This document shows positions 1 through 18,830 of a stretch of 19,277 nt of DNA, in pieces. Within the stretch, counting starts at the first letter, position 1. The number at the start of each line of letters is the position of its first letter. A model generated the notes under the pieces. It searched no databases. It saw only the letters and a list, made by a program, of their open reading frames with translations, and had not been told where the DNA came from. The stretch comes from an uncultured euryarchaeote. GTDB taxonomy: Archaea; Thermoplasmatota; Poseidoniia; Poseidoniales; Poseidoniaceae. The stretch is from assembly GCA_937899865.1 (NCBI GenBank), contig CALBRH010000030.1, forward strand, positions 1-19,277. The letters run 5' to 3'. The position numbers and the translations under genes are program-made.

Positions 1-27
1 TTTATGATAAGTTGATTACTATTTAAT

Positions 28-95
28 TGGCGCCGAGAGGGAGATTTGAACTCCCGTGGGAAGATCCCACGCGATTTCCAGTCGCGCGCACTACC
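28..95 (-). repeat. Partial copy (3' 68 nt including CCA) of the tRNA-Ser(GGA) gene; att-like direct repeat
   Basis: 28-95 aligns without gaps to 872-939 (offset 844) at 64/68 identity; mismatches at 40/884, 42/886, 52/896 and 57/901. The intact 5' acceptor strand GCCGAGA is absent. Confidence 0.93.
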
Positions 96-871
96 CAATT
101 CGATGCCATTCGGGAAAAATATAATGTGATTATTTAGCAATCATCACGACAATGGATGAGGTATCTATTGAAGGAGCAGAGGTAGTTCCCAAGAAATTCA
201 CTAGCGTATCTAAAAAACCAATAATACTGTTGTGTGTATTTGGTTTGGTCCTAGCACCAATCGCGGTGTACGACGATAATTGGTTGAACGCAAATATTGA
301 CACAGATGATTTTTGGGGGACCATTATGAAACAAAACGTGTACATAAGTCTGGACACATTCCAAATGGAGTATTGTGCTGATGATGATTGTGAGATCGAA
401 GAGAAGCAAAAATTAGGCGAATTATACCAATTATGTTACGATGAGGTAATTGAGGAAGAAGGAGATGATGAAGTAGATGATGATGAGATGGAAGAACTGT
501 GCGGCCCATGGAATGAGCTTGACAAGGCCGGTAAGACTACGAAGACGTTAATTTTTACAAGTATGTTCATCGTTCTTGCTGGAATTTTAGTTAGCCTATC
601 GCCAATTTCTACCCAATATCGAATACTACCATATTCAATGATCACTGCAGGCGGTGGAGTGACTCTTGCTTCTATCCTCAACTGGAAGCGAATGCTACCA
701 GAATTTACAGAAAATTTAGACAATGGTAGTGGACAAGCAATAGCCATATTTTCAGGAATTCTTTTCCTTCTTGCCGGAATTATTGGAATAATACAATCTA
801 GAAAGTTGATTAAACAAGAACTACAAATCGACAGCATAGCCGAAGAGTAAGCGGTTATTGAGATTAGTTTT
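96..871. mobile_element. Putative tRNA-anchored single-gene islet between tRNA-Ser and its 3' duplicate
   Basis: Bounded by direct repeats of the tRNA 3' end, the usual signature of tRNA-targeted integration. Contains one CDS and no integrase. Confidence 0.55.
152..850 (+). CDS. Uncharacterised four-TM membrane protein with Cys-containing, highly acidic first loop (claudin/PMP22-like topology)
   Basis: 232-aa ORF with hydrophobic segments PIILLCVFGLVLAPIAV, TLIFTSMFIVLAGILVSL, ILPYSMITAGGGVTLASIL and IAIFSGILFLLAGIIGII. The loop has four Cys (YCADDDC, LCY, LCG). AT-rich TATA-like AAATATAA lies ~30 nt upstream. Confidence 0.8.
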   Translation: MDEVSIEGAEVVPKKFTSVSKKPIILLCVFGLVLAPIAVYDDNWLNANIDTDDFWGTIMKQNVYISLDTFQMEYCADDDCEIEEKQKLGELYQLCYDEVIEEEGDDEVDDDEMEELCGPWNELDKAGKTTKTLIFTSMFIVLAGILVSLSPISTQYRILPYSMITAGGGVTLASILNWKRMLPEFTENLDNGSGQAIAIFSGILFLLAGIIGIIQSRKLIKQELQIDSIAEE

Positions 872-957
872 TGGCGCCGAGAGAGGGATTTGAACCCCCG
901 AGGGAAGATCCCACGCGATTTCCAGTCGCGCGCACTACCAGGCTATGCGATCTCGGC
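872..957 (-). tRNA. tRNA-Ser(GGA), 86 nt, encoded CCA, no intron
   Basis: Reverse complement folds as a cloverleaf: acceptor GCCGAGA/TCTCGGC, discriminator G plus CCA, D-stem GCAT/GTGC, anticodon stem CGCGA/TCGCG with loop CTGGAAA, long variable arm GGGATCTTCCC, T-arm GGGGG-TTCAAAT-CCCTC. Confidence 0.97.
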
Positions 958-985
958 CTAAACCGTGCGGTGGTTATTCTCCGTT

Positions 986-991
986 TAACAT
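986..991 (-). promoter_or_regulatory. Probable TATA box of tRNA-Ser (TTAAAC)
   Basis: TTAAAC on the minus strand ~29-34 nt upstream of the mature tRNA 5' end; position only. Confidence 0.35.
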
Positions 992-1056
992 TCACGCCAT
1001 TAAATCGCCAACCAATTTAGCGAAAATACTCAAAGGTGATTCGACTAGCGTTAGCC

Positions 1057-2181
1057 ATGACCGAGCCATCCGGTGAGTCAACTGAGACAGAAGATGGCAT
1101 GCAATTTAGATTGCGTGATATGGAATTAAAGGTTAAAGTTGGCGATATCCACCCAATTTTCAATAGAATTGATGATTTGAGAAAACAATGGAAATTTATG
1201 ATCTTACTCGCATTGAATGATTGGAAGAAAGCAAATTACTTGATGCTTGGTTTTGGTATTATTGCTTTTACACTTGGGTCTATTTCCACCGATATTATTT
1301 CTGGAGGTGATTCCCTCTCCACCGGCATGGATGGTTTGATGGGAGTTGGTTCATTTTCTTTCTTTCAAATGTTACTATCTGTAGTTGCTTGGGTAGTATT
1401 TCTCTACTTTGTATGGATAGAATTCCCAGTTATGCGAATTCACTCAATAACAATGATGTTGATTTGGAATGGCATGGTATTTGCCAATGTATTTTTTCAC
1501 CAAAACAATCCAGATTGGCCAACCGATATGGCTCTATCAGACATGATGTATGGAACACTGATTATGCTAGTAGTTGTGTTCTTCACATACTTTTTCTGGA
1601 AAGCAGTTAGTGACACAAGGGATTTACACGTCCAAGTTCATCACGTCCATGAAGATGTTCGAATCATGGAGCGAGATATGTATGAGCACTCATTAGGTGG
1701 CTGGGGTTCAATGTTGTTTGTGTGGTTTTCAGCAACTTTCATTTCTGCGTGGAGTGGAGTTAACTTCGTTGCTTCGAGAAACAATGAGGCATACTTCACA
1801 CTATTTTTGCATGTATTAACTGGAATTATAATTATACCACTGTTTTTGATGATAATATGGTACCCGCAAAGAATGCTTGGCACGGCTACTAAAATTAGTA
1901 CTTCAGCTGCACTAACAGCAGAAATTGAAATGAGTCAAGGACAACTTAACATCACTACAGATGCAAAATGCCCAGAATGTGATGCTCCAGTAAAACTAAC
2001 AATGGAAATGGATGGTCAAATCTCTGTACCATGTTTCAATGAAGGTTGTGAAACTTTTAGTGGCATCATTGGCTCAATTTGCTCTGGGTGTGAAAAAGAA
2101 TTCCCATCTAGATTCAATTGTCAATCTTGCAATACCAATATCCCATACATTGACACGATTCCGGATTCGGAGGCTTGGTGA
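1057..2181 (+). CDS. Uncharacterised polytopic membrane protein with C-terminal double zinc-ribbon-like Cys cluster
   Basis: ORF track 1036..2181 (GTG); ATG at 1057 is an equally plausible start. About seven hydrophobic segments, His-rich loop DLHVQVHHVHED, and C-terminal CPEC..CFNEGC..CSGC..CQSC. Confidence 0.85.
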   Translation: MTEPSGESTETEDGMQFRLRDMELKVKVGDIHPIFNRIDDLRKQWKFMILLALNDWKKANYLMLGFGIIAFTLGSISTDIISGGDSLSTGMDGLMGVGSFSFFQMLLSVVAWVVFLYFVWIEFPVMRIHSITMMLIWNGMVFANVFFHQNNPDWPTDMALSDMMYGTLIMLVVVFFTYFFWKAVSDTRDLHVQVHHVHEDVRIMERDMYEHSLGGWGSMLFVWFSATFISAWSGVNFVASRNNEAYFTLFLHVLTGIIIIPLFLMIIWYPQRMLGTATKISTSAALTAEIEMSQGQLNITTDAKCPECDAPVKLTMEMDGQISVPCFNEGCETFSGIIGSICSGCEKEFPSRFNCQSCNTNIPYIDTIPDSEAW

Positions 2182-3395
2182 TGTTCTCACATCTTAGGGA
2201 AGATTTCCCTACACTTAGAGGTGAAAATTCACCGGCATACTTAGACAATGCTTGTGTAACGTTGAAGCCTGATTCTGTCATTAAGTCAATTAGTGATTAC
2301 TACAACATGTATCCTGGATGTGGTGGTAGGTCTGTTCATCGTTATGGCACACAGGTGTCACGTTTGGTATCCCAATCAAGAAAATCAATTGCTAATTTTA
2401 TCAATGCAAATTCTGTAAATGAAGTAGTATTTACTCGTAACACAACTCATTCGATTAATCAAATTGCTAAAGGTTTGTCTTGGAATAAGGGTGATGTAAT
2501 CATAACTGGTGACAGAGAACATAATTCCAACCTTGTACCTTGGCTACAACTTGCTGAAGAGCAAGGAATCGAACATCGTATTGTTGAATCTAATCCCGAT
2601 AACACATTCAATCTCGAAAATTTTGAACAACTTTGCGAAGAGGTTGGAGACCGATTAAAAATGGTCTCTCTAAGTCAAGTTGGAAATCTAGATGGCATTT
2701 CAATACCGATTAAGAAAATCGCTAAGATTACTCATCAATATGATGCATTGATTGCTGTTGATGGTGCGCAATCAACACCTCATATGCGAGTAGATGTTCA
2801 AGATTTAGATATAGACTTCATTTCTTTTTCAATTCACAAGATGTGTGGTCCATCTGGCATGGGTGGACTTTGGGGTCGCTATGAATTACTTGATTCTCTT
2901 CGCTCGATTCAATCTGGCGGACAAACCGTTGAAACCTCTCATTATGATTCAATCAAATGGGCTGCTCCACCTTCAAAATTTGAAGGCGGCTTAGGCAATT
3001 TTGCTGGCATGATCGCTAGTGGCAAAGCAATTGACTATCTATCAAAATTAGATATGAATGCAGTTCATGAACATGAAATAAAGTTAAACAAGATAATTAC
3101 TAACAAAATAAAGCATCTTGATGCTATCGAAATTATTGGTCCTGAAGATGCGAGTCATCGAGGTGGAATTTGTTCGATTTTAATGGGCGACTTACCATCT
3201 CATGATATTGCAATCTTGTTGGATGAAGCTGCTGGCGTAATGGTAAGAAGTGGCCAACACTGTGTTCACTCATGGTTCAATGCTCGTGGTCATGTTAACG
3301 GTTCGCTAAGAGCATCTGCTTATTTTTATAACACTGAAGAAGATGCAAATCTATTTGCTGATACCTTCACTGAAGCAGTTGAAGCATTTGGTTGA
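2181..3395 (+). CDS. sufS: Cysteine desulfurase, SufS/CsdA-like (class V PLP aminotransferase)
   Basis: Motifs YLDNAC, FTRNTT, EHNSN, DGAQS, FSIHKM (PLP lysine), RSGQHC (catalytic Cys), RASAYFYNT. GGAGG SD at 2169-2173 favours ATG 2181, which overlaps the upstream stop (TGATG). Confidence 0.9.
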   Translation: MFSHLREDFPTLRGENSPAYLDNACVTLKPDSVIKSISDYYNMYPGCGGRSVHRYGTQVSRLVSQSRKSIANFINANSVNEVVFTRNTTHSINQIAKGLSWNKGDVIITGDREHNSNLVPWLQLAEEQGIEHRIVESNPDNTFNLENFEQLCEEVGDRLKMVSLSQVGNLDGISIPIKKIAKITHQYDALIAVDGAQSTPHMRVDVQDLDIDFISFSIHKMCGPSGMGGLWGRYELLDSLRSIQSGGQTVETSHYDSIKWAAPPSKFEGGLGNFAGMIASGKAIDYLSKLDMNAVHEHEIKLNKIITNKIKHLDAIEIIGPEDASHRGGICSILMGDLPSHDIAILLDEAAGVMVRSGQHCVHSWFNARGHVNGSLRASAYFYNTEEDANLFADTFTEAVEAFG

Positions 3396-4534
3396 TTCTT
3401 ATGGATGAATTATTAGATATTGTGACCAGTGATGTGATTCCTGAAGCCACTTTGTTGTCACATCAACAATCAACAAGAAAATTTGTTGGCTTTATGGTTG
3501 TTATATCACTGATTCTGGTTTTTTCGACTGTATATTTGGCTAATGTTTTTTCTGAAAACAATCCATTTGCAGTCCGGCCAACAGATGGGGCTTTGGAATC
3601 TCAAGAAGTATATAGTGAATTAATCCAAACTGATGCTACTAAATTGGACGGTTCCGGTGTAAAAGTGTGTATTGTCGATTCTGGGATTGATACAAGTCAC
3701 AAGGATTTAGATGGTATGAACTTAGTTGCATGGCGTGATTTTGTCAATAATCAAGAACAACCCTATGATGACCAAGGGCATGGAACAAGTATGGCTGGAA
3801 TATTAGTTGCTGATGGTTGGATAGAAGGTGTAGCACCTGAAGTCGAATTAGTTGTGGCTAAAGCACTATCAAGTGATGGTAGTGGCGATGATGGAATTGT
3901 TGCCGATGCAATAGACTGGTGTGTTGAACAAGGAGTCCAAATCATCTCATTATCGCTTGGAGGGGCACCCGGATTGATTCCATTCAATCCATTTGGTGGC
4001 CGTGATTCTGGAGATGCTGCAGATGATGCGATTAACCAAGGTATAGTAGTAATTGCAGCAGCAGGTAATGATGGAGGCCCTGATGATGATGGAGATGTTG
4101 CCCATCCATCAAGTGAAAGATTAGTCATCTCTGTTGGAGGAGTCACTGAAGATGGTAGTCATTGGAGCGGTTCATCAATAGGTGATAATAATGGCAATTT
4201 ACTGCCATTGATACTGCCAAGACAAGACCCTCACAAGAAGCCAGAGGTTGTTGCCCCAGCAGAGGGAGTACCAGTGATCAACAATGATGGAACATGGTCA
4301 ATAGTTGATGGAACAAGTGCTGCAACAGTATTCGTTACCGGTGCTATAGCTTTACTTTTAGAAGCCAATCCAAGTCTTGCTGCTAACGAATCTTCGGGTT
4401 CTTCTGACACGGTAGTTCAAATAAAACAGGCAATAATGAATACATCAAAACCGCTACCAAGTCAAGATGGACATGATGACAACTATGGTTATGGAATGTT
4501 ACAGGTTGAAAACTTGATTGCTTCTTTTGCCTAA
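3392..4534 (+). CDS. Membrane-anchored subtilisin-like S8 serine peptidase
   Basis: Catalytic triad motifs IVDSGID, DQGHGTSMAG and DGTSAAT; oxyanion AAAGND; N-terminal hydrophobic helix FVGFMVVISLILVFSTVYLA. Start may be ATG 3401. Confidence 0.92.
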   Translation: MILMDELLDIVTSDVIPEATLLSHQQSTRKFVGFMVVISLILVFSTVYLANVFSENNPFAVRPTDGALESQEVYSELIQTDATKLDGSGVKVCIVDSGIDTSHKDLDGMNLVAWRDFVNNQEQPYDDQGHGTSMAGILVADGWIEGVAPEVELVVAKALSSDGSGDDGIVADAIDWCVEQGVQIISLSLGGAPGLIPFNPFGGRDSGDAADDAINQGIVVIAAAGNDGGPDDDGDVAHPSSERLVISVGGVTEDGSHWSGSSIGDNNGNLLPLILPRQDPHKKPEVVAPAEGVPVINNDGTWSIVDGTSAATVFVTGAIALLLEANPSLAANESSGSSDTVVQIKQAIMNTSKPLPSQDGHDDNYGYGMLQVENLIASFA

Positions 4535-5269
4535 TTATTTTTTAAGAAACGTAACAATAGTTCCTTCAAAGACCGGAATAAAGGCTACATAGTATTCCAT
4601 TTGTGATTTTTTAATCAATTCAATCCAATTATTAAATCCATTAACCAATGCCATCTTTAATTCATCTGTTTCATCAACATCTCCTGTCGGAACCATTGGT
4701 TCAGTAGATACTAGAACTCCATTTTTTGATAACAAAGGTAAACAATTTTCGATCGATTTCGCTAAATCTTCAGGCTTCTCATCTACAATAATCACATCAT
4801 AATTTGTCAAAAGTGGCGCATCTCCAGATTCAAGACCTGATATTGTTGCTGCTTTCCAAGCCATTGTTTCTGCGGCGAGATTTTGTAACTCTCCAAGTTT
4901 GATATTGGTCCATGATGACGCATCATATCTATCGACTAATCGCTTTATGATAATTGCAAATTTGCTACCTTGTTCAATAATATCATACCTGTTTGGTTTT
5001 GATTTACTATCAAATAAATCCAACATCCAAGCACTACGATGGCCAATGCCTCCACCAACCTCAAGCACATTTTTCGGCTCGATACGATATAATCCGTCTC
5101 TAACTCTACGCATTACAGAAATTGGCCATGTTTCAAGACCCATGTGTTGTAATTGCTCATTGATATTAGCAGCAATTTGTGGTTCATCTTTTGGTAAATC
5201 TGCAGGCTTACCAAATAGATTACCAAGCAATTCAGAACGGTCAGGTAAAACCGTATCATCTTCGCTCAT
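4535..5269 (-). CDS. Class I SAM-dependent methyltransferase-like protein (O-methyltransferase-like)
   Basis: Motif I VLEVGGGIGHRSAW, acidic end of beta2 (YDIIEQ), YDVIIVD strand and LLSKNGVLV post-motif. Substrate unknown. Confidence 0.72.
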   Translation of the reverse strand: MSEDDTVLPDRSELLGNLFGKPADLPKDEPQIAANINEQLQHMGLETWPISVMRRVRDGLYRIEPKNVLEVGGGIGHRSAWMLDLFDSKSKPNRYDIIEQGSKFAIIIKRLVDRYDASSWTNIKLGELQNLAAETMAWKAATISGLESGDAPLLTNYDVIIVDEKPEDLAKSIENCLPLLSKNGVLVSTEPMVPTGDVDETDELKMALVNGFNNWIELIKKSQMEYYVAFIPVFEGTIVTFLKK

Positions 5270-5360
5270 GATTTGGCCACATATTAGCGATTGATGAATG
5301 CTCGTATCGGTATTTTAGGCGATTACTTGAAACCTAATGGGCTGTGGGAGAGACGATAGC

Positions 5361-6128
5361 ATGACTGATGAAGTAGCTGAGGATGACTATGAAGAGGTCG
5401 TCGAAAATGTTGCTCTATGCAGTGAATGTGATGATTATATGGAACATGAAATATTGAAAGAACGCAAGGTTGGAACTGGTCGTGACCTTTTGCTGAAATG
5501 TATATCATGTTCAGCAATTAATAATTTACAGATTAGAGAGCCAAAGTCAATATCAATTCCATTTATCTTAACTGATGGCCCCCATTCAGCACGTGTTGAA
5601 TTAGCAATTGATGAAGATGAAGTATTCAATATTGGAGATGTCTTTGAAGAGGATGAAATGTTATGGACAATAAACCAAATTCTCGACAAGGACAAGCGTA
5701 AAAAGAAGACTATTTTGGCAATAGATGCCTCATCAATTTCAGCCTTACGCACTGACATGGTACGTGTCAAAATAACAGCAACTAGAGGCGAGCAATCAGA
5801 CTCCTCTTCGATGCTAGTTGAATATGGAACCAAATTTACTGCAGATACCAAAATCGATTATCAAGGTGAAGTTTGGCGCATTAGAGCAATTCACACTGGC
5901 GCTGGAAGAACACTGAAGGGTACTGTGGAATCTCAAGATATCAAACGGATTTACTTGCATGAACCACCTAACCCTGAACATTTTGAGCCAAAGACTCCTA
6001 GAGAACGTAGACAAGCATGGAAAGAAGGTAGATTAGGGTACAATCCTAATCCGGAAATTCCCAAAGAGATTACCAAAAAAAGAGTTACTCCAAGTAATAA
6101 GCGTAAGAAAAAGCGCCCAAGAAAGTAA
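5361..6128 (+). CDS. Archaeal zinc-finger protein, HVO_0476/COG1326-like
   Basis: N-terminal CSEC..HEILK..LLKCISC pattern typical of this family; very basic C-terminal tail. ATG 5361 preferred over 5337. Confidence 0.7.
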   Translation: MTDEVAEDDYEEVVENVALCSECDDYMEHEILKERKVGTGRDLLLKCISCSAINNLQIREPKSISIPFILTDGPHSARVELAIDEDEVFNIGDVFEEDEMLWTINQILDKDKRKKKTILAIDASSISALRTDMVRVKITATRGEQSDSSSMLVEYGTKFTADTKIDYQGEVWRIRAIHTGAGRTLKGTVESQDIKRIYLHEPPNPEHFEPKTPRERRQAWKEGRLGYNPNPEIPKEITKKRVTPSNKRKKKRPRK

Positions 6129-7106
6129 TCAAGGACGGTTTGTCCATGGCATTAAGAATGCCTTAGCAACTTGTGCCCCAACTGTTGGATTTTCTTGTAA
6201 TCTGCGAATACTGTATTCATACCACTTCTCCCCGTAAGGGATGTATACCCTAGTTCTGTGACCTTTCGCTGCTAATTTTCTTCTTAGAGGCCCTCTTACA
6301 CCCAACAACATTTGGAACTCATAACCAGGACCTTTTCCAGTTCGAGGCTTACCAGCATTTTCCCTTGGGTCTGCAATATTTGGACCCATGCCATATGATT
6401 CAAGAGCAGATAATGCATGATTGATTACTGGTTTGTCATGAGATGCAACTGCACAGTAAGCACCAGCAGCTAACATCTTGTCAATGCTGGCATTTGTAGC
6501 GCTAACAATCTCATCATATCCTATGTGAGCAATATCTTCTGGTTCAAGATAAATTCCCTTACAAATTCTATAATCGGCAGCCGAACCAAGTTTTTGCTCT
6601 AAATAATCGATATCATCAAGGGTTCTGAACAATCGCCCTTGGTATACAGTTCCAACATTGGTTAAACCTTCATTATGTAAATCAACCACTACATCGATAG
6701 TAGCTTGTGTTACACGATGATCTTCCATGTCTAGTCGAACAAACATGTCATGCTGTGATGCCATTTGTACTAGGCTACGAATTTTCTCAAATCCTTTATC
6801 TCTATCTATTAACAAACCAAATGCAGTCGGTTTAATACTAAGATTGGAGTCGAGTTCATGCTCGATAATTTGATCAATTAATTTAGCATACTCATCATAG
6901 AAATATTGTGCTTCATCCATTGAAGTAATTTCTTCGCCAAGAACATCTACTGTAAAGCAAGCATTCTCCTTGCTCAAACGCTTCATCACTTTTATTGCAT
7001 CCTCAATATTATTTCCTGCAACGTATCGACGAGAAACCCATCCTACAAACCATTTAGGCATCCGAATTGTCATGCCAACTACAAGTTTTGAAAACCAGCC
7101 GGTCAT
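6129..7106 (-). CDS. Monofunctional proline dehydrogenase (FAD)
   Basis: Motifs RRYVAG, DVLGE, SIKPTAFG, RLDMED, RICKGIY, ASHD, EFQMLLGVR and RVYIPYG..WYEYSIRRLQENP. Confidence 0.93.
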   Translation of the reverse strand: MTGWFSKLVVGMTIRMPKWFVGWVSRRYVAGNNIEDAIKVMKRLSKENACFTVDVLGEEITSMDEAQYFYDEYAKLIDQIIEHELDSNLSIKPTAFGLLIDRDKGFEKIRSLVQMASQHDMFVRLDMEDHRVTQATIDVVVDLHNEGLTNVGTVYQGRLFRTLDDIDYLEQKLGSAADYRICKGIYLEPEDIAHIGYDEIVSATNASIDKMLAAGAYCAVASHDKPVINHALSALESYGMGPNIADPRENAGKPRTGKGPGYEFQMLLGVRGPLRRKLAAKGHRTRVYIPYGEKWYEYSIRRLQENPTVGAQVAKAFLMPWTNRP

Positions 7107-7137
7107 AGCAACCCCAACATAGGCTCAATGAGGAGAT

Positions 7138-8118
7138 TCATGAGGCTTGTGTTTTTTTGCCCAAGGCCTCTACAATCTGTTTGGTTGTTAGTAATGGAAC
7201 TTTAACATCTGACAAGAAATCTCTAATTGCCTGTCGTTGCCACCCCCTAAACGCTTTTTTATCCATGGAACAAATGATTTGCCCTTGTGGAAATGCTTGT
7301 TTTGTTGCTGCTATTGCTGATTCTAAAGCCTGTTTCCAATTACCACCAGGCTGTTCATTTTCATCTTCTGGTTTTTCAAATGGAAGAGCATAAGTTGCTA
7401 ACATATGACCTAACCAAACCCCATCCATCGATGCTAATTTATTTGCACGTGGAGCATAATGGCCACCACCTAATGTTACCAATACCAAATCACCTGAATT
7501 TGCTTTTTCATCCCAAAGGCCAATGTTATTTTCCCCACCTAATGCCATTCCATCCGCAATAATTCTGGCCAGTAATTCAGCAGCCTCCTCATTTGGCCAT
7601 GTTTTCTCAGTTGAGCCAATTTCAATGAACATTGCAGGAACATTAAGCCATGGCCCATGGTGAGTTACTTCTAATGTAAGTTCAAACTGTTCAGCAAGTT
7701 CTGTTCCTGAAACATATTCTTGCAACATTTTCCACCATGAGGAAAGCCTTGTTGAAGGTGGTGGTGCAAATCCAGCCTTACCGCCAAATTGAGGCTTTTC
7801 GGCTTTATTTAACTGTGGCACACCGATTGGATGGAGTGTTAAAGATGGCTTACCGCTAGCTGCTGCATGTCGTGAAGGAAAAATCACTTCGGTAACGACT
7901 TCCCCAGTATTATCAAACCATCTTTGATCAATATCATCTTCAAAAAGTATACCTCGTTCAAACATCCAAATTCTAACATCATTTAGTTGATAAGCTAATT
8001 TTCCTTCAACCTTGCCAATTGATTGCCATGGAAATTTTTCAAGTAGATATTTGGCTTGGTTATATGATGCTATATCATCGGCATTCACAGCAATAATGGA
8101 AACTTGCTGGCTGCCCAT
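7138..8118 (-). CDS. dtdA: Archaeal D-aminoacyl-tRNA deacylase (DTD2/GEK1 family)
   Basis: Motifs SRHAAASGKPSLTLHPIG, LEVTHHGP, FIEIGS and GGGHYAP. Confidence 0.92.
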   Translation of the reverse strand: MGSQQVSIIAVNADDIASYNQAKYLLEKFPWQSIGKVEGKLAYQLNDVRIWMFERGILFEDDIDQRWFDNTGEVVTEVIFPSRHAAASGKPSLTLHPIGVPQLNKAEKPQFGGKAGFAPPPSTRLSSWWKMLQEYVSGTELAEQFELTLEVTHHGPWLNVPAMFIEIGSTEKTWPNEEAAELLARIIADGMALGGENNIGLWDEKANSGDLVLVTLGGGHYAPRANKLASMDGVWLGHMLATYALPFEKPEDENEQPGGNWKQALESAIAATKQAFPQGQIICSMDKKAFRGWQRQAIRDFLSDVKVPLLTTKQIVEALGKKTQAS

Positions 8119-8142
8119 AATTACCTGTCACAGTAGACATTT

Positions 8143-9126
8143 TTGATTCCTTTCCATACGAGATTTGACAAACCACAGTCGTTTCGACTTACCATGGCGT
8201 GGGGAATACCAGAGGATTTGGATTTTACGCCAAAGCAAATTCTGCGCTATAATGAGGGATATATTGCAATTGGTGTTGACGGTGATTTGCAAAAAATTAG
8301 TTCAGATGGTAAGTTAGTTGGCATACCCATCAAGCCATTTCCAACACAAATTAGAGACGCTGTAATAATTGATGACACGTTAATTGCAACATGGTTAGAC
8401 CAAGAGTTATTGCTTGCAAGAATGGCAGCATTGGATTTGAAAAATGACTTTTCTGAAGGAGTCAATCGAGGTGATTTGAGAGTTAGAAGAACTATCGATA
8501 AATCTCTTCATCCAGCAGGTAATGATTGGTCTCATGTATTAGATGCTGAACCGATATCACTCAATGCTAATAGTGATTCATTCTCATTTGTTTTATGGAA
8601 AAAAGGTGTTTACAATTTAGCAGTTAATTCGGTGGAAAATTGGCGATCTGCAGAACCAAAGTGGCCTAAATTAGCTAAAATTCCACGTGCTATGGAAACG
8701 ATTGCTACGACATGTGATGATGAAATATACGAAATTTGGTCAAAAGGTGGAGGAGTAATCAGATATGATGTCAAAACTGGAGAAAAAATTAGCCAAGAAG
8801 TTTTACCATTGGATGGATTTCTCAATCAAGTCTACAAGTGTGGCGAACATTATTTGCTACTATTCAATAATTCCAACATTGCTCTATATGAAAATGGCAA
8901 TGTTTTGCTTAATGCTAAACTATCAGGTCCAATCAATTATGCAGAATGGAGTGAAACAGAGCAAGGTTGGCATATAGCTGGTTGGAGAGAATTAGCGTTT
9001 ATTTCTACTGAAAAACAAAATAGAATACAACTAAAGGAATTAGCTGTATTTGTTGATTCACAGAACGGTTTGTATCTGTGTAATGATGGTAAGTGGGATA
9101 TTATTGATGGTACTGAAGAACAGTGA
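8143..9126 (+). CDS. Hypothetical protein, Trp-rich and probably beta-rich
   Basis: 327-aa ORF filling the space between dtdA and rps27ae; no family recognised. The real start may be ATG 8194 (MAWGIPEDL). Confidence 0.7.
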   Translation: MIPFHTRFDKPQSFRLTMAWGIPEDLDFTPKQILRYNEGYIAIGVDGDLQKISSDGKLVGIPIKPFPTQIRDAVIIDDTLIATWLDQELLLARMAALDLKNDFSEGVNRGDLRVRRTIDKSLHPAGNDWSHVLDAEPISLNANSDSFSFVLWKKGVYNLAVNSVENWRSAEPKWPKLAKIPRAMETIATTCDDEIYEIWSKGGGVIRYDVKTGEKISQEVLPLDGFLNQVYKCGEHYLLLFNNSNIALYENGNVLLNAKLSGPINYAEWSETEQGWHIAGWRELAFISTEKQNRIQLKELAVFVDSQNGLYLCNDGKWDIIDGTEEQ

Positions 9127-9306
9127 TTATTCTTCTTTCAACATCTCAGTATATCCGCATCGACCACAAGATTTGCGGTTTGCGTGAACTGCAAGGAAAA
9201 CACCTGGGCCACATGTAGGGCAGAATTCTGCCTTACGCTCTAATTTTCCATCTTCTCCAATTGAATATTTGCTCCACTTTGCTGCAGCGTTTGGTCCGTC
9301 TCCCAT
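9127..9306 (-). CDS. rps27ae: 30S ribosomal protein S27ae (eS31); absent from the supplied ORF track (59 aa)
   Basis: Manual translation: [59 protein letters not shown]. Contains the [26 protein letters not shown] signature; TAATG overlap with the rps24e stop and a GGAGG SD. Confidence 0.95.
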
Positions 9307-9695
9307 TATTCATCGCCTCCTTCTTCAGCAGCCTCTTCTTCAGCAGGTGCTTCTTCCTCAGCAGCCTCTTCTTCAGCAGGTGCTTCTTCCTCTGCAGCTG
9401 CAGGTTTTTCAGCAGTACTACGGAATCCTTCATGACGCTTGTGAATATATTTTGGTTCAACCTTCATTGATTCTTCATCATCATAAATGTAAGCAAGTCC
9501 TGTGGTCAAAGGTTGCCCAAATCTAGTATTACAATCCTTGATAATAATATAATCTGGATTAGATTTTGGTTCAAGTGTCTTAACTAAATCCATTACTTCT
9601 TGACGTGATGGAGTAGCTTTTCCACTATGCCTCCAACTGAATTTAATTTCTACACGGTTCAATAGTTTGTTTTCCATTCTCTCAACAATTTCCAT
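9306..9695 (-). CDS. rps24e: 30S ribosomal protein S24e (eS24) with acidic C-terminal tail
   Basis: [42 protein letters not shown] signature. GAGGTGA SD 5 nt before ATG 9695. Confidence 0.93.
9325..9390. repeat. Two tandem 33-bp repeats encoding ([11 protein letters not shown]) units in the eS24 tail
   Basis: tcagcagcctcttcttcagcaggtgcttcttcc at 9325-9357 and 9358-9390. Confidence 0.85.
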
Positions 9696-9705
9696 ATTTT
9701 TCACC

Positions 9706-9924
9706 TCATCTAATGTTGACTTTTAACGCATACTTACCTGGTCGATCTACATTCAAACGCTTTGCAATCTCTGAACGTTCAGGGTCCATGATAATGACAT
9801 ATCCCTGCCAATCTGTTGTAACTTGAGCAGATGGGCAACGGTTACATTGTGGAATATCATTTTTCTTTTCAGGATCTGGTAGAATAATACTACATTCTGC
9901 ACAGGCAAACGGATTCTTAGCCAT
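9706..9924 (-). CDS. spt4: Transcription elongation factor Spt4 (RpoE'')
   Basis: ACAECSII..CNRC..TTDWQGYVIIMDPERSEIAKRLNV..PGKYALKV. GAGGTGA SD 5 nt upstream of ATG 9924; the 9975 start in the track overlaps rpoE'. Confidence 0.93.
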   Translation of the reverse strand: MAKNPFACAECSIILPDPEKKNDIPQCNRCPSAQVTTDWQGYVIIMDPERSEIAKRLNVDRPGKYALKVNIR

Positions 9925-9934
9925 CATTTTCACC

Positions 9935-10492
9935 TCACTCATTATTATCTTCATCAATCCAAGCATGGCAACCAAGACCTGGTTGCTTACTTGTTAGACC
10001 GATCTTTGACCTTCTTGGATCACTGGTATCTGGAGATAATGAAACTATTCTTGCTCTAATTGAATCACCAATCGAGACTCTGCGGCCAGTTTGCTTTCCT
10101 TCAATCCATCCCATGCCAACATTGGCATCAACTGTGTCATCCATAATCTGAGACTTGTGCAAAAGTGCTTCCATAGGTCCAATTCTCACGAAAGCACCGA
10201 ATTCGTTTACTTCTGAAACTACACCTTCAACCACTTCATAGTCATCCATACAGAACAATACTGCATCAAATCTTACCTTTTGATAAATTGCGCCATCACC
10301 ATGAATGATTCTTCCACGACCGAGTGGTTGGTGGTTACTAGTTACTAAAACAAACCGATTATCATCATCAAAACGACCTTCGAAGGCTGTCATAGACAGT
10401 CTGTCGATGTGCTGGTCGAGTGATTGTCCTTTACGCATATATTCTGCCGGGATACGTATTGTATCCTCTTTGGTGACAATTTTGTACATCAT
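9935..10492 (-). CDS. rpo7: DNA-directed RNA polymerase subunit E' (Rpo7)
   Basis: GRGRIIHGDGAIY..F..EVVEGVVSEVNEFGAFVRIGPMEALLHKSQIMDD..GD.IRARIVSLS..KIGLT.KQPGLG signature. Confidence 0.96.
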   Translation of the reverse strand: MMYKIVTKEDTIRIPAEYMRKGQSLDQHIDRLSMTAFEGRFDDDNRFVLVTSNHQPLGRGRIIHGDGAIYQKVRFDAVLFCMDDYEVVEGVVSEVNEFGAFVRIGPMEALLHKSQIMDDTVDANVGMGWIEGKQTGRRVSIGDSIRARIVSLSPDTSDPRRSKIGLTSKQPGLGCHAWIDEDNNE

Positions 10493-10504
10493 TTCACATC
10501 CTTA

Positions 10505-10582
10505 GACCGATTCAAAGGAACGTGGTGAAGAATAGCATGCTATTCTGTCCTTCACCGGTGTTACCTCGGGATAGAATCGACC
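10505..10582 (-). ncRNA. Candidate structured RNA / 5' leader of the rpoE' operon
   Basis: Four nested helices found by eye: GGUCGAUUC/GAAUCGGUC, AGG(U)AAC/GUUCCU, GGUGAAG/CUUCACC and AAUAG-CAUG-CUAUU. Region is ~52% GC by hand count over 10505-10609, clearly richer than its flanks. Confidence 0.5.
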
Positions 10583-10609
10583 GTAGTCGTTCTGTCCACC
10601 GACGACCCC

Positions 10610-10616
10610 TATTTAA
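10610..10616 (-). promoter_or_regulatory. Probable TATA box (TTAAATA) for the rpoE' operon
   Basis: Consensus-like TTAAATA predicts a start near 10586, just 5' of the structured element. Confidence 0.4.
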
Positions 10617-10733
10617 TGGAAACGGAATTATCTGGTATACATCTATTGGCTGTTTAACAAACATAGCAAATTTGATGCATTAAACATACGAATTGCCATA
10701 AGTCATAACAACCCCTTTGACACACATGATGCT

Positions 10734-13700
10734 ATGTCACCTGCGCATGCCTTGAATATATGGCGTGGAAGAAAGGCATTTGCGTTAGTGATTTTACTGT
10801 TTTTGACGCCATTAACAGGATTTTTCTCAAACGTTCAAAATGATACTTTTGATGATGATGAAGTCATTTCTTACACCTCTTCAAATCCATGGGATTCCAT
10901 AGCACAGCCGTGGGGACAATATTCGAGAGTCCCTACGCACAATGGGACTATGCCGCCTCATGGACCAAATGGTGGACCTGGACAAGATATTGTAGCAAAT
11001 GTTACTGAATTTGGTATAATTGATTCACCCACAGTAAATTGGGTTGCGTTAGATGATCTGGATGGAGCTGATGCTTATGGATCTATTATTGGTGATTTTT
11101 CTGCTAGCATTGTTTCTACTCCTGCTGCAATTGAAAGGTGTGGATATGGAGAATTATTTGCAGTAATTATCTCAAGTGAATCCGGCAGTAGCACTTTAAG
11201 CATAGTTACTGGAGATGATGCAAAGGTAGCATGGGAAGTGGATGTTGGTCAAACGCAGACAATTCGTTCAACACCAATGCTAACTGACATCAACGGAGAT
11301 GACAAGCCTGAAATTATCTTAGTTTACGACACAGATTCATCCTTAGAAATTGATGTTTGGTCACCAGAATTGTCCTGTTCAGAATCAGGTTGGGTTAAAT
11401 CTGGACATGAAAATGAAAAATTATGGTCTTTGAGTGATTCTGATTACTCAATTGGCATCAATAGCCCACACTTTGCGACTTCGCAAAGCAATCATAAATC
11501 AGTCACACAACCACTATTGGCTGATTTAGATTTAGATGGTGATGCTGAATTAGTTGTTGCTGCAGTTGACAGAAATTCAGATAATCCAACTGTAATTGCT
11601 CTATCACTCACTACTTCTACACCTAATGATTTTGATTGGGAAGTTGTACTTGATCGAGGAACTCATCCCTCAGACCCTTCATGGGGTATGTTAGATGATG
11701 ATTCAACTGCAATTGTCCTTACAACTATTGATTCAAACTCAGGTAATATGTGGATTTGGCGAATCGATGGAGCATCTGGTTCTCTTGATTGGGAAAGAGT
11801 TTCATTAGATGGTACAGACTCTGATTCCGATTCTCCACGTCTTCGTTTACCTGGCCCTGTAATTGTTCAATTGGACAATGATGATGCTCCAGAAATGATT
11901 CTAACTATACCTACTGATGCTAACGGAAGAACTCCTGGAAATGGCGCAAGATTTGTAGCAATGGAAATGACATCTACCGATGAAATATTTGAATTCCGCA
12001 CACCTAATGGTTACTCAGATTCGCAACCATTACCAATCGATACAGACGATAATGGCATTCATGACAGATTATGTTGGGTAACATGGTATTCAGAATCAAG
12101 TGTTTCTTTCAATAGAAAGGGTATGGCTGGATGTCATGATATTTCTTCAGATCCACCAATCAAAGAATGGTCTAAAGATATGCAAAGAGGCAGTGGTAAT
12201 GACAATGATGAAATTGGCGTTGCTCCTCCTATTTGGATGGACATAAATGGAGATTCATTTGTAGAACTTATTGTCCCATTTGGCAAACGTCTTTGGGCGT
12301 TTGATGGAGATGACGGCACTTCCTCTGAAGTCTCAGACGGATGGTCATCACCTCTTGGAATGCCACACCGTGTTTGGTCTGCTCCTGCAGTTGCAGATAT
12401 GGATAATGACGGAACATTGGATATATTGATTGGAGATACATTGGTATCTCAAAATGTAGCAGATTTCTCTCCACTTAGTGACAATAGGGGTATTAGTTTC
12501 AACCCTAGCCAACCTGACCCGGGTGAAACTGTTACTGTTACAGGCCAGTTTAGCAATATAGGTACACTTGATAATGAAGATGACCTTGATGTTGTGATTA
12601 AGCAAAATGGTAACGAAATCACTCGACAACGGTTTACAGATGTCGAACCTGTGGCTCCATCAGGCAACGGAGGACCATACACATTTAGTGTAGACATTAC
12701 TGCAGAACTTGGCATTCATAACTTTGAATTAATTCTTGATATCAATGGAAATTTAACTGAAGCAAGGGAAGATAATAACTATGCCCAAATTGATTTGATA
12801 GTTGTTGAACCTTATGAAGCGCAAATTGACATCCCTCCTCAAATTCCAAGAATTGCTCCTGGAACGAGTGAAATTATCTCTGTTTCGTTAGTAGCAACTG
12901 GTTCACGAACAGAAGACTGGACATTTACTTGGGATGACTCAAATCTACCAAGTGGCTGGTCTCTCACGCCAAATACCAATCAGGATACAAATCCAAACCT
13001 AATACCAGGAATATCACAACAGTTTGAGTTTGTAGCTTCAATTCCACAGACGGCATTAGGTGATGACAATTCATATGCGATTCTAACATTAACACTAGAT
13101 AGCGACCCAAGTATATCGTTTGATTCAATATTACCATTGGAAGTTCTTCGTACTAGAGGGTTATCTATAGCTGGGCCAAGCGGATTAGACAATACTGAAG
13201 GATTTGGCAGACCTGGTCATACTGCTACTGCATGGATAATAGTCGAAAATTTAGGCAATGCATATGAAACAACCACTTCAATTGATTGGACTGCGCCATC
13301 TTGGGGTGGTAATCCAACTTTACATGATTCAAGTGGAACAGAAATATTCTCTCTAAATTTAGCACCTAGTGAACAAAAAGAATTGTTTGTAAATCTAAAC
13401 ACACCAATCGGAGTGCAACTCGGTTCAGTGACTTCTACAACTATGACTATGTGTATTGGCAGTGGAGAAGAGACATTGTGTGAAGATTTGTTTGTTAACT
13501 TAACTGCAGCCTCTGTTACTGTGCAAAACATTCATCAAAGAACTCTACCAAATCAATCACTACAATGGACTGTTGAAGGTTTGATCCCTGATGATGGTTT
13601 GATGTCGTGGAACACTGTTTCTGCTAACATGGTACATACAAACTGGGTATGGAGTGTTGATGGAGATTTGTCATTTGATGGAAGTAACATAGAAGCAAGT

Positions 13701-16439
13701 GGCAGTTCAGGAGCACCATTTACTGGAAACATTTACCTGGACTTACCGGTAAATGCTGTACCTCAACGTCATTATTTCACGACTGATTCTGATTCTGATG
13801 ACAATCACAGCCTATACTTCACATTACATGTACTTCAGGTTTATCGAAGTGCATCAACTATTGTTCAGCCTACACAAAATTCTCAAGGTGAGCCAGTTTC
13901 AATGTTTGTTGAGATTACCAATCAAGTATTACTTAGATTAGAAAACCCTGGCAATGGGCAAGATGAATTTTTATTGACAAGTGAAGTAATTGAAGGCCCT
14001 AATATGACTAGTTCCCCTGTTGTTGAATTAATCGAATATAATCCTCAGCGTACTCTTGGCCCACTTGCAAGCACTATCGCTACTGTAGATGTTACTTTAT
14101 CAGAAGACACACCCGCACAAGAACCATTCATTCTAAGATTTAAGTGGCAATCGTTAGGTGGAGAAAATGTTCAATCAGTAGTGGATTTATTAGTTGAAGC
14201 AGAACCTGATCACGGTTGGGATTTGACTTTTGAAGATGGCTTAGAACACAACATTGTACCCTCTGAAACATTAACTTTGAATTATACAGTGAAGAATACA
14301 GGAAATGCAGTTGATAATATCATTGTAAAGCCAATATTTTCGATAAATTATTTTGGTAGCGATTCAAGCATATGGACAGCAGAAAACAATTCATTTGCGG
14401 ATATTGAAGTAAATGGTACAGCTTCCTTAGATTTTTCAATTACTGCACCAAGTGATACATGGAGTGGTACTATTGCAACGGTAATATTTGAATTGTATTC
14501 AGATGAACTTTATGTCAGTAATTTGTCATTAAACCTAACCGTTCAACAAGTTTCTGGCTGGAGACTAAATCTTTCTGAAACTAACCTGATTATCGAGCCA
14601 GATGGGCAAAATCTAACTCTTAATGTTGAACACTTAGGGAATTTAGCTAGACAGCCATGGTACAGCAAAGCAGGTGAAGGATGGAACATATCAGTGCCAC
14701 AAAATGGTGACATTATACAACCGTTTGGCGAATCTACTGTTACCATTTTTGTTACACCGCCGGAAAATTCTGTAGCAGGTGAAGTAGGTGTTCTAAGACT
14801 TAGAGTATCTGATGGGGATGGTTCTGGACAAACTATTCAAGAAGTCCCAGTTAGAGTTGGTACATCACCAAGTATCGAATTATTCGCTAAAGGAAATTGG
14901 TTAGTGAACTCGACAATCGAAAGTATGCCAACTGCATGGGTTGAGAATACAGGTAATGATTTAGCAATACTATCAATTGATGTTACAGGTCTACCTGAGG
15001 GATGGACAGCAAACCATCCTGAAAGTTTGATTATTTCTCCCAACCAAGTGATTGGTCTACCTATTAGTTTGCTTCCTGACCCTTCATGGGATAGTACACC
15101 GATATCTGTCACTATAGAGGTGATTCACCCTATTATTGGTCTACAAACAATTTCAATACCTGTTGAAGCATCAAGTTTTGCCTTTACCTCTTCACCAGTA
15201 ATTTCAGGAGTTGTAGGAGACACAGCAAGCGTCTCGGTAACAAATAATGATGTTGATTTACCAAGTAATGTGCAACTTTCATCCTCAACATTACTAGTTT
15301 CAATACCTAATGGTAAACAAAATCTAACCCTTACATCAAGTGATGGCGTGACTGAATACTACATACATTCAGCAGGTTATTTATTGCCTGAATATTCAGC
15401 AAGTTGTAGTTTTATCTCCGCTGCAATGGATGAACTTGGCATTAAAACCATCAATGACAAAATAGGTACATGTACATTAGTTGCAACAAGTGATGACAGT
15501 TTTTCTGGAACCGTAGTGCTACTCACCAACGATGGCAACAATGTTGCGCTTGAACAAAATCAATTTTCAGTTTCTAAAGGTGGCAGTTTATCACTTGACA
15601 TTAACACAACTAATTGGAAACCAGATGCTGGAGAACTAACTGTAACTCTAATTGTAATTGACTCATTTGGAAGACAAATTACAGAAAGAAGTACTGAAGT
15701 AATATCTAGAGCAAGTGGTTGGAATATTGGAATTCAAGAAATTACAGCAGAACAAGACATTAGAATCTCAATTATTCGTACTTCATACGAGAGGTTAGCC
15801 GGTGTAACATGCTTGATTTCACTAGATTCACCAGATAACGATTGGAGTGAAACTATCATTATCGACATAAATGGATTCGATTTTGCACCTATTATTGAAA
15901 TTGATGACCCTGGTGTATTTGACAATGATGATTTAATTCGAGCTGAATTAAAATGTGCTTCACCCTATGACATCGATGATGTTTTAGATGACGATACGGC
16001 GCAAGTTTACTACAAATCTGCAAAATCTGAAATTATTGATAGTTCCCAAATGATCTATGGCATAATGACAACAATAATTGTCATTGCAATAGCTTATTTC
16101 GCTGGACTACTAACACCAAATGCAACTAGAAAGCAAAGGCCTCAGAAAACTAATCAAAACAAAGAACCTGTGGTTGAAACAGAACAATCTGAAGACATTC
16201 AAGAAACACCTGAACAGGAGTTAGATGATTTCAGTATTGAAATTGAAGAAGATGGTTTGGAAAAAGAGGTCATTGAAATTCAAGAGGAAGAAGATATAGA
16301 AGATTCTCAAACTAATTTGATTGATGAATCTTCTGCATCAGGAAGACTTGCATCTCTAAGGGATGAAATGATGTCTGATGATAAGCCTGTAGATTCTAGA
16401 CCGATTACTGATAGAATGGCTGATTTCTTCAAAGACTGA
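10734..16439 (+). CDS. Giant (1901 aa) acidic cell-surface protein: signal peptide, FG-GAP-like Ca-binding propeller, CARDB domain, serial Ig-like (NEW3/COG1470-like) domains, C-terminal TM and acidic tail
   Basis: N-terminal RRGRK+hydrophobic helix. Repeats DINGDDKPE, DLDLDGDAE, QLDNDDAPE, DTDDNGIHD, DINGDSFVE and DMDNDGTLD. CARDB-like FNPSQPDPGETVTV..SNIG..EAREDNN. Repeated ENLGN/ENPGNG/KNTGN/EHLGN/ENTGN strands. TM YGIMTTIIVIAIAYFAGLL. Confidence 0.9.
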   Translation: MSPAHALNIWRGRKAFALVILLFLTPLTGFFSNVQNDTFDDDEVISYTSSNPWDSIAQPWGQYSRVPTHNGTMPPHGPNGGPGQDIVANVTEFGIIDSPTVNWVALDDLDGADAYGSIIGDFSASIVSTPAAIERCGYGELFAVIISSESGSSTLSIVTGDDAKVAWEVDVGQTQTIRSTPMLTDINGDDKPEIILVYDTDSSLEIDVWSPELSCSESGWVKSGHENEKLWSLSDSDYSIGINSPHFATSQSNHKSVTQPLLADLDLDGDAELVVAAVDRNSDNPTVIALSLTTSTPNDFDWEVVLDRGTHPSDPSWGMLDDDSTAIVLTTIDSNSGNMWIWRIDGASGSLDWERVSLDGTDSDSDSPRLRLPGPVIVQLDNDDAPEMILTIPTDANGRTPGNGARFVAMEMTSTDEIFEFRTPNGYSDSQPLPIDTDDNGIHDRLCWVTWYSESSVSFNRKGMAGCHDISSDPPIKEWSKDMQRGSGNDNDEIGVAPPIWMDINGDSFVELIVPFGKRLWAFDGDDGTSSEVSDGWSSPLGMPHRVWSAPAVADMDNDGTLDILIGDTLVSQNVADFSPLSDNRGISFNPSQPDPGETVTVTGQFSNIGTLDNEDDLDVVIKQNGNEITRQRFTDVEPVAPSGNGGPYTFSVDITAELGIHNFELILDINGNLTEAREDNNYAQIDLIVVEPYEAQIDIPPQIPRIAPGTSEIISVSLVATGSRTEDWTFTWDDSNLPSGWSLTPNTNQDTNPNLIPGISQQFEFVASIPQTALGDDNSYAILTLTLDSDPSISFDSILPLEVLRTRGLSIAGPSGLDNTEGFGRPGHTATAWIIVENLGNAYETTTSIDWTAPSWGGNPTLHDSSGTEIFSLNLAPSEQKELFVNLNTPIGVQLGSVTSTTMTMCIGSGEETLCEDLFVNLTAASVTVQNIHQRTLPNQSLQWTVEGLIPDDGLMSWNTVSANMVHTNWVWSVDGDLSFDGSNIEASGSSGAPFTGNIYLDLPVNAVPQRHYFTTDSDSDDNHSLYFTLHVLQVYRSASTIVQPTQNSQGEPVSMFVEITNQVLLRLENPGNGQDEFLLTSEVIEGPNMTSSPVVELIEYNPQRTLGPLASTIATVDVTLSEDTPAQEPFILRFKWQSLGGENVQSVVDLLVEAEPDHGWDLTFEDGLEHNIVPSETLTLNYTVKNTGNAVDNIIVKPIFSINYFGSDSSIWTAENNSFADIEVNGTASLDFSITAPSDTWSGTIATVIFELYSDELYVSNLSLNLTVQQVSGWRLNLSETNLIIEPDGQNLTLNVEHLGNLARQPWYSKAGEGWNISVPQNGDIIQPFGESTVTIFVTPPENSVAGEVGVLRLRVSDGDGSGQTIQEVPVRVGTSPSIELFAKGNWLVNSTIESMPTAWVENTGNDLAILSIDVTGLPEGWTANHPESLIISPNQVIGLPISLLPDPSWDSTPISVTIEVIHPIIGLQTISIPVEASSFAFTSSPVISGVVGDTASVSVTNNDVDLPSNVQLSSSTLLVSIPNGKQNLTLTSSDGVTEYYIHSAGYLLPEYSASCSFISAAMDELGIKTINDKIGTCTLVATSDDSFSGTVVLLTNDGNNVALEQNQFSVSKGGSLSLDINTTNWKPDAGELTVTLIVIDSFGRQITERSTEVISRASGWNIGIQEITAEQDIRISIIRTSYERLAGVTCLISLDSPDNDWSETIIIDINGFDFAPIIEIDDPGVFDNDDLIRAELKCASPYDIDDVLDDDTAQVYYKSAKSEIIDSSQMIYGIMTTIIVIAIAYFAGLLTPNATRKQRPQKTNQNKEPVVETEQSEDIQETPEQELDDFSIEIEEDGLEKEVIEIQEEEDIEDSQTNLIDESSASGRLASLRDEMMSDDKPVDSRPITDRMADFFKD

Positions 16440-16477
16440 TTACAAGGTATTAATTCACTTGGCCTTCTGCCATCATC

Positions 16478-18067: not shown

Positions 18068-18112
18068 GATTACCTTTGACCCAATTAGGCCTTTGAACAT
18101 TTCACAGCCAAA

Positions 18113-18775: not shown

Positions 18776-18830
18776 CTCAATCAAACCTGCTAAATCATGG
18801 AGTTCTAAAAGGAAGCCGTATAATGTGAAT

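Follow-up and report, generated by a model that had tools for sequence, protein, structure and literature searches.

A one-gene module bracketed by tRNA 3′ repeats in the tRNA-Ser(GGA) gene of a marine group II archaeon

The tRNA-Ser(GGA) gene, its 3′ copy and the module between them

The stretch of DNA analyzed here (the window; 19,277 nucleotides [nt]) is the entire contig C30 of the metagenome-assembled genome (MAG) G000, which comprises 2.01 Mb on 65 contigs, is 91% complete, and belongs to a marine group II archaeon (Poseidoniales). Near its left end, the 3′ part of a tRNA-Ser(GGA) gene is present twice, and a single open reading frame, ORF232, lies between the two copies. The working tRNA gene is referred to as Ser, the fragment at 28–95 as Ser′, the insert with ORF232 as the module, and the collagen-repeat/DUF7151 gene on the left as Big. 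Two tRNA alleles are distinguished, R (T-stem GGGGG/CCCTC) and X (an A in the variable arm and T-stem GGGAG/CTCCC). G000 is the window's MAG, other G numbers denote related genomes, L numbers the contigs compared, and g1, g12, and g13 genera; L090 is the metagenome contig CEVR01046576.1, and L002, L013, and L055 are G015:C19, G000:C51, and G151:C4, respectively. The features of the locus are as follows.

1–15, plus strand: last four codons (F M I S) and stop of Big, the gene for a large secreted collagen-repeat/DUF7151 protein; the frame continues in G015:C19 and L090
28–95, minus strand: Ser′, the original 3′ 68 nt of the lineage's own tRNA (from nt 19 in the D-loop through CCA), now displaced; allele X, non-functional; from the repeat and the identity to the empty site
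96–939, no strand: insertion relative to the empty site, 844 bp (776-bp unique module plus one 68-nt tRNA 3′ copy); absent in L090
96–151, plus strand: left arm of the module, with a box resembling a transcription factor B recognition element (BRE) and TATA box, GGGAAAAATATAAT, at 112–125, ~27 nt before the ATG; conserved beside ORF232 homologues
152–850, plus strand: ORF232, 232 amino acids (aa), sole gene of the module; from the list of open reading frames
851–871, no strand: right arm of the module, a 21-nt spacer from the ORF232 stop to the tRNA 3′ end; same spacer in L098, L102, L104, and L110
872–957, minus strand: working tRNA-Ser(GGA), CCA encoded; ARAGORN, Infernal 54.8 bits
872–939, minus strand: module-borne 3′ part of the tRNA, allele R; within tRNA-Ser(GGA)
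940–957, minus strand: 5′ 18 nt of tRNA-Ser(GGA); within tRNA-Ser(GGA)

The 3′ 68 nt of the tRNA gene (872–939) recur at 28–95, spaced by 844 bp and with four differences, exactly as the initial annotation of this DNA had described; a repeat search delimited the pair as 27–95 and 871–939 (69 nt, 94% identity, spacing 844). Both gene and copy are on the minus strand. The differences are at window positions 40, 42, 52, and 57 (partner positions 884, 886, 896, and 901). Three of the four fall into the T-stem, which remains paired in both versions: that of the gene (GGGGG/CCCTC) contains one G-U pair, that of the copy (GGGAG/CTCCC) is Watson–Crick throughout. The remaining difference is at the base of the variable arm. 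The gene at 872–957 is the sole GGA isoacceptor in the MAG, and its sequence is identical in at least nine related genomes, including G015, G021, G024, G013, G012, G011, G100, and L098.

ARAGORN also labels positions 28–114 as tRNA-Ser(GGA). Infernal assigned this interval 25.8 bits, which is below the gathering score for tRNA calls (29 bits), and aligned only model positions 7–64, without an acceptor stem. The putative acceptor stem pairs at four of seven positions, and past nt 19 the identity to the gene falls from 94% to chance level. When the 5′ part was swapped for unrelated natural sequence, ARAGORN still called 19% of the constructs a tRNA; its call on 28–114 therefore carries no weight. 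A second live tRNA at this position was rejected on the basis of the Infernal score and the ARAGORN randomization, and the dead fragment, being reported as a second tRNA-Ser gene, is a reminder for caution in annotation. No further copies of the tRNA-Ser fragment were found elsewhere in the MAG. Between G000 and G015, Ser′ differs at 6 of 68 positions, the module at 14 of 776, and the live tRNA at none of 86, and in L102 and L106 Ser′ carries deletions. Thus, Ser′ is not under constraint and decays faster than its surroundings in G015.

The module contains ORF232 as its only gene, the shorter frames all lying inside it in other frames or on the opposite strand, and neither an integrase nor another recombinase is encoded in it. 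The earlier view of a one-gene, recombinase-free unit between tRNA 3′ repeats thereby held. The box in the left arm probably drives a leaderless transcript. The ORF232 homologues of G015, G021, G100, L098, L102, L106, and L110 are flanked by the same conserved left arm, the homology of which starts at (C)AATTCGATGCC every time. ORF232 is a predicted four-helix membrane protein, with one N-terminal and three C-terminal hydrophobic helices and, between them, an acidic loop with four cysteines. Searches against Pfam, NCBIfam, and the protein atlas returned no named family; relatives were found in Thermoplasmatota only, and a protein search of metagenomes yielded 25 homologues of 58–97% identity. 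In genus g13, homologues with ~33% identity are located directly 3′ of tRNA-Ser(GGA). The notion of ORF232 as exotic cargo was rejected, because its family has long adjoined tRNA-Ser(GGA) in the window's archaeal family, in genera g1 and g13.

Empty site, allele origins and the module in other backbones

An empty site exists. L090 matches window positions 1–95 at 97.9% and 871–5998 at 94.8% identity around a single intact tRNA-Ser, does not contain 96–939, and its tRNA-Ser has exactly the sequence of the copy (allele X). Since Ser′ is identical at 68 of 68 positions to this tRNA (and to the intact one of L091), it is the lineage's own displaced 3′ end, which agrees with the earlier proposal that one of the repeats is the displaced original. 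Comparison with the empty site shows that window 96–939 is an insertion into a resident tRNA-Ser(GGA), by which nt 19–86 of the tRNA were duplicated and the 3′ part of the working gene was imported together with the insert. The initial annotation had derived the copy from a functional tRNA allele of another lineage; its functional origin stood, its foreign origin did not, the copy being native and the 3′ part of the gene being the import. The ancestral order in the window's lineage, as read from these contigs, is Big→ ←Ser(allele X), tail-to-tail. It is also present in L091, the background identity of which to the window is just 72%.

Among ~35 relatives surveyed for tRNA-Ser(GGA), the T-stem falls into three allele classes. 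GGGAG/CTCCC, common in intact genes of relatives as had been anticipated, is widespread in the order, with allele X intact in L090, L091, and L096; GGGAG/CTCTC is common in the window's archaeal family; and allele R is restricted to a single subclade of the genus, in which it is native to G021, G024, G100, G011–13, and L098 and also present in the working genes of G000 and G015. A scan for contigs in which the allele of the copy adjoins the variable loop specific to the clade returned eight, all from metagenomes and all with an intact tRNA-Ser(GGA). Given this distribution, the T-stem differences are ordinary compensatory evolution within live tRNAs of separate lineages, and the pairing kept in Ser′ goes back to the evolution of both alleles in functional tRNAs, not to constraint on the fragment. 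An old in-place duplication followed by compensatory change in the live gene was rejected: an ancient neutral copy is implausible because Ser′ is still fully identical to intact allele X and because allele R is shared by genomes only 72–75% identical to G000. Allele X was also encountered on L088 (G290:C128, CALGEM010000128.1; positions 1–157), a GC-rich g12 contig that starts with 55 nt of tRNA-Ser exactly corresponding to this allele. The piece is convergent on tRNA-Thr over an AT-rich 27-nt spacer, a full tRNA-Ser(GGA) lies 1.7 kb away, and the piece may represent a second copy, or the contig may have been chimerically joined at the conserved tRNA-Thr.

The contigs carrying ORF232 homologues present four contexts. 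In the first (L098–L101), the order is RtcB, tRNA-Thr, a 72-nt spacer, ORF232, Ser(R), and the usual right-hand genes, without a repeat. In L098, the module is 97% identical to window 97–957 in a backbone that is 76–78% identical to G000, and the identity falls to ~60% just past the tRNA 5′ end. In the second context (G100, G214, G024, G021, and L107–L110), an ORF232 homologue and Ser(R) follow tRNA-Thr after a short spacer, likewise without a repeat; G100 shows identity at background level, which points to vertical inheritance, and in G021 the module is 90% identical versus 75% for the backbone. The third context, Big–Ser′–module–Ser, is that of G000, G015, and L104, with G015:C19 reproducing the structure at 98% identity and extending 600 nt further to the left. 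The fourth includes L102 and L103, with the order tRNA-Thr, a 506-aa gene, Ser′, module, and Ser in a GC-rich (55–57%), genus g12-like backbone, and L106, in which tRNA-Thr converges on Ser′ over 27 nt and the module follows. The module of L102 (39.9% GC) is 92% identical to that of the window, whereas its backbone is less than 50% identical and does not align beyond the tRNA.

The fall in identity is located exactly at window 96/97 on one side and at the tRNA 5′ end on the other. The junction GCACTACC|CAATT (tRNA nt 19 | CAATTCG) is base-identical in G000, G015, L104, L102, L103, and L106, irrespective of the left flanks and Ser′ alleles, in which these contigs differ. An assembly chimera was rejected, as five independent assemblies besides the window (G015:C19, L104, L102, L103, and L106) show the same structure. 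In each of three backbones Ser′ carries the allele expected of its host: X in G000, the g12 type in L102 (variable loop CCCGTT, as in G151), and R in L106. Because the same junction occurs in at least three backbones, each with its own allele in Ser′, the module must have entered tRNA-Ser genes repeatedly and crossed genus boundaries; the simplest reading of these alignments is that resident genes received it on two or more occasions, one of them in a different genus. No other insert using the nt-19 junction was found in 248 other genomes of the family.

Two further fragments of tRNA-Ser were observed at this locus. In L106 (1161–1377), the tRNA on the right of the module ends after 26 nt (3′ end to T-loop) and is followed by unrelated sequence, which may reflect a second insertion in the same tRNA or a chimeric contig end. 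In L055 (2006–2035 and 2090–2176; genus g12), the last 30 nt of tRNA-Ser(GGA), from T-stem to CCA, recur without a difference 54 nt downstream of the gene. This repeat looks like the attachment-site (att) scar of a different, now absent, element.

To the left, the window ends with the contig, 27 nt from Ser′. The initial annotation had imagined a tandem array of tRNA-delimited cassettes beyond this edge. The neighbor is instead Big, and no further fragment is present in 2 kb of L090, in 600 nt of G015, or in the MAG. The frame of Big extends leftward for 112 + 89 aa in G015:C19 and for 689 aa in L090 (Pfam: DUF7151, Collagen), and in L091 its stop is 12 nt from the tRNA 3′ end. A search for relatives of the C-terminal 112 aa among 201 family genomes, run without a positive control, found none. 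In G015:C19, an in-frame TGA is present in the C-terminal part (271–273), where it may indicate a pseudogene, a sequencing error, or read-through. In G000, tRNA-Thr is located on contig C51. The lipoprotein frame after it, with collagen, DUF7151, and pentapeptide repeats, runs off the contig, so that only its N-terminal 552 aa are present; the G015 assembly breaks at the same repeats. The order in G000 is probably Thr–Big–(gap)–Ser′–ORF232–Ser, with the two Big pieces putatively forming one gene. On C51 (L013, 1672–1684), the Thr spacer upstream of Big is followed by 13 nt, AATTTAATACCAT, that are similar to the left end of the module, AATTCGATGCCAT (window 97–109); an earlier ORF232 may have given way to Big just inside this end.

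In the window's genus, tRNA-Ser(GGA) and tRNA-Thr(GGT) are convergent and the interval between them is variable, so the strong variation among relatives that had been expected at this locus was indeed found. The interval measures 16–102 nt in 11 genomes, contains an Ion_trans channel gene in three, ORF232 in four, another arrangement with a gene of ~530 aa in two, and Big in L090 and L091. The Ion_trans gene (267 aa, a single-domain, voltage-gated-type cation channel) in G017/G020 (L008/L009) and G016 (L053) is on the opposite strand and without a tRNA repeat. Beside tRNA-Thr of G021, the motif GCACT is part of an 11–13-nt spacer that is also present, in diverged form, in L107, L108, L110, and G100; it may be the native spacer or, alternatively, a Ser′ remnant. 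Over window 1–4172 (the module and three downstream genes), G000 and G015 are 96–98% identical compared with 91% elsewhere (4274–18838), an indication that the two species recently exchanged this region. Upstream of the tRNA, a conserved 381-aa neighbor (1036–2181), without a Pfam family, passes the membrane several times and has C-terminal CxxC pairs, which are clear in its G290 homologue; a 1901-aa open reading frame spans 10734–16439.

How the module may have moved

The favored explanation is that a real, repeatedly inserted and non-autonomous one-gene module, bracketed by tRNA 3′ repeats, is moved by host homologous recombination and not by an integrase. That such a module exists and behaves in this way is highly probable; that host recombination is its agent is an even call, and for the statement as a whole, mechanism included, we estimate a probability of about 0.5. 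Host homologous recombination was taken as the likeliest agent because no recombinase is present in or near the module. The module would have originated from an ordinary chromosomal Thr–ORF232–Ser(R) neighborhood as it is found, free of repeats, in many relatives, when a copy of ORF232 together with 68 nt of the tRNA became a portable unit. The carried 68 nt would let a copy of the module recombine with any resident tRNA-Ser(GGA), either as an 844-bp circle arising by recombination between Ser′ and Ser (predicted circle junction: GAGATTAGTTTT + 68 nt tRNA + CAATTCGATGCC) or as a linear piece bounded by repeats. A single Campbell-type crossover inside the shared 68 nt would yield exactly the structure seen. 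Had it occurred within the 38 nt adjoining nt 19, a tract without differences among the alleles, the native variable and T arms would end up in Ser′ and the module-borne ones in the gene. Whatever the agent, the insert brought its promoter, ORF232, and the 3′ part of allele R, and the resident 3′ 68 nt were pushed aside and are decaying.

Several points weigh against this explanation. A circular or excised form was not seen, and no circle junction was present in the short contigs compared. An integrase acting in trans predicts the same junction and the same allele pattern, and recombination over 68 nt with 4–8 mismatches is, in these uncultured archaea, only hypothetical. Both copies in L102 correspond to the host allele, and both copies in L104 (coverage ~1.3×, many indels) are R-like, so that later gene conversion is needed in either case under both models. 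The two short 3′ fragments of tRNA-Ser, an exact repeat of 30 nt in G151 and a truncation to 26 nt in L106, resemble att scars of a different element, and integrases may therefore act on tRNA-Ser(GGA). MAGs often lose mobile elements, so the absence of an integrase is weak evidence. Whether by host recombination or by a borrowed integrase, the module may be a true mini-island that cycles via the 844-bp circle and needs nothing of its own but the 68 nt; we regard this extension as conceivable, though doubtful.

The strongest competing explanation, if still somewhat unlikely, is a non-autonomous element resembling cis-mobilizable elements (CIMEs), for which the 68-nt segment would be the attachment site (attP) of an integrase (tyrosine or serine type) that another marine group II element provides in trans, insertion and excision being site-specific. 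The exact, identical end point in independent backbones is what such an enzyme would produce, and regeneration of the tRNA with displacement of its 3′ part is the classic outcome of integrase action; the att-like fragments of 26–30 nt at the locus fit as well. Moreover, Charybdis clade P elements with an integrase are reported next to tRNA genes of Poseidoniales (bioRxiv 10.1101/2025.08.03.668216). However, the enzyme itself did not come to light. A scan of the 91%-complete MAG for PF00589 gave a single match, which is XerA/XerC-like, and no other integrase, and the viruses, among which the initial annotation had proposed to look for the alleles, gave no match either: no IMG/VR contig contained the anticodon-arm 22-mer, the T-arm/acceptor 27-mer, or either 40-mer allele of the tRNA. 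In addition, no other insert in the 248 family genomes uses the nt-19 junction, the arms beside the tRNA segment are just 56 and 21 nt long, and the module is colinear with an ordinary chromosomal locus.

This colinearity is also compatible with an immobile module, the junction of which would have been made only once, by homology-facilitated illegitimate recombination: Thr–ORF232–Ser(R) DNA imported from a relative would have been anchored through the tRNA and joined at nt 19, with flanks replaced and Ser′ converted later. We consider such a history improbable, even though the Thr–Ser interval is a replacement hot spot and the elevated identity between G000 and G015 over 1–4172 indicates recent exchange of larger pieces. 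L102 belongs to another genus, has 56% GC and no alignable flank beyond the tRNA, and yet its Ser′ carries the allele of its own genus, for which a separate insertion is the simplest explanation. The right-hand boundary is less clear-cut. Four upstream single-nucleotide polymorphisms (SNPs) at 958–990 are common to the window and G100 but not to L090, a hint that the imported tract extends past the tRNA; however, G100, which this haplotype matches, is a poor donor proxy (ORF232 78% identical), and against the best one, L098, identity stops at the tRNA 5′ end. The right junction may thus lie beyond the tRNA according to the SNPs, or at its 5′ end according to L098. Finally, that an old tandem duplication left 28–114 as a second, degenerate tRNA-Ser gene of full length, or that the structure is an artifact of assembly, is suggested by the ARAGORN call and the proximity of the contig end (27 nt), and is very improbable given the fall from 94% identity to chance at nt 19, the 19% of random 5′ replacements that receive the same call, the Infernal score below threshold with no acceptor stem, the empty site, and the five independent assemblies with the same junction.

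Significance and relation to known systems

Marine group II archaea are abundant and uncultured, gene exchange among them is poorly known, and few integrated elements have been described. For the one-gene unit presented here, occupied and empty sites are both available, as are a donor-like native locus and a recipient in another genus, which is unusually complete for metagenomic data. The case shows that carrying along a piece of the neighboring tRNA is enough to make a gene portable, and it offers a testable route for single-gene exchange in this group. If the module were indeed a cycling mini-island, tRNA genes would be general docking sites at which these archaea exchange single genes across species and genera.

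Islands that target tRNA genes, such as archaeal integrated plasmids and viruses with pNOB8-type integrases or bacterial P4-like elements, insert into the 3′ part of the tRNA gene, regenerate the tRNA, and displace the original 3′ part as a direct repeat. The module shares with them the bracketing tRNA 3′ repeats, the intact tRNA (54.8 bits), and the empty site in a relative (L090, flanks 95–98%). In contrast to them, it has no integrase of its own, the feature that defines the family, comprises only 776 bp of unique DNA with a single gene, and is colinear with a chromosomal locus of related archaea. CIMEs, known from the ICESt1/ICESt3 family of Streptococcus thermophilus, and similar islets without an integrase are flanked by att sites, do not contain recombination and transfer genes, and recur at one tRNA/att site. 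The module is likewise flanked by att-like sequences, without recombination and transfer genes, and located at the same site in several genomes. It differs in its archaeal host and in probably stemming from host DNA and not from a decayed integrative and conjugative element, and no cognate integrase-bearing element sharing the att site was found in IMG/VR, the 248 family genomes, or the MAG (absence from MAGs being weak evidence).

In integration of the SSV (Sulfolobus spindle-shaped virus) type, the integrase gene is split on insertion into an archaeal tRNA gene and tRNA fragments are left as footprints. Target and footprints are the same here, but no int(N) or int(C) fragments are present by the repeats of the module, the space being filled by ORF232 and the arms of 56 and 21 nt. 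Additive flexible genomic islands adjoin tRNA genes in marine bacteria (Alteromonas, Prochlorococcus). As in these, the locus is strain-variable and tRNA-anchored, with cargo for membrane or surface proteins; unlike these, it holds one cassette and one fragment, not an array, and most variants of the Thr–Ser interval are repeat-free and look like replacement by flanking homology. Closest in host are the Charybdis clade P proelements of Poseidoniales, ~4.6 kb in length, which are reported to be integrated next to tRNA genes and contain structural and accessory modules and their own integrase (bioRxiv 10.1101/2025.08.03.668216). Host order and tRNA-adjacent site are shared, whereas the module has no integrase, and no sequence link to these elements was found. 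Taken together, the module is most aptly seen as a minimal, archaeal version of the tRNA-bracketed island, a principle already known, and it probably derives from host DNA.

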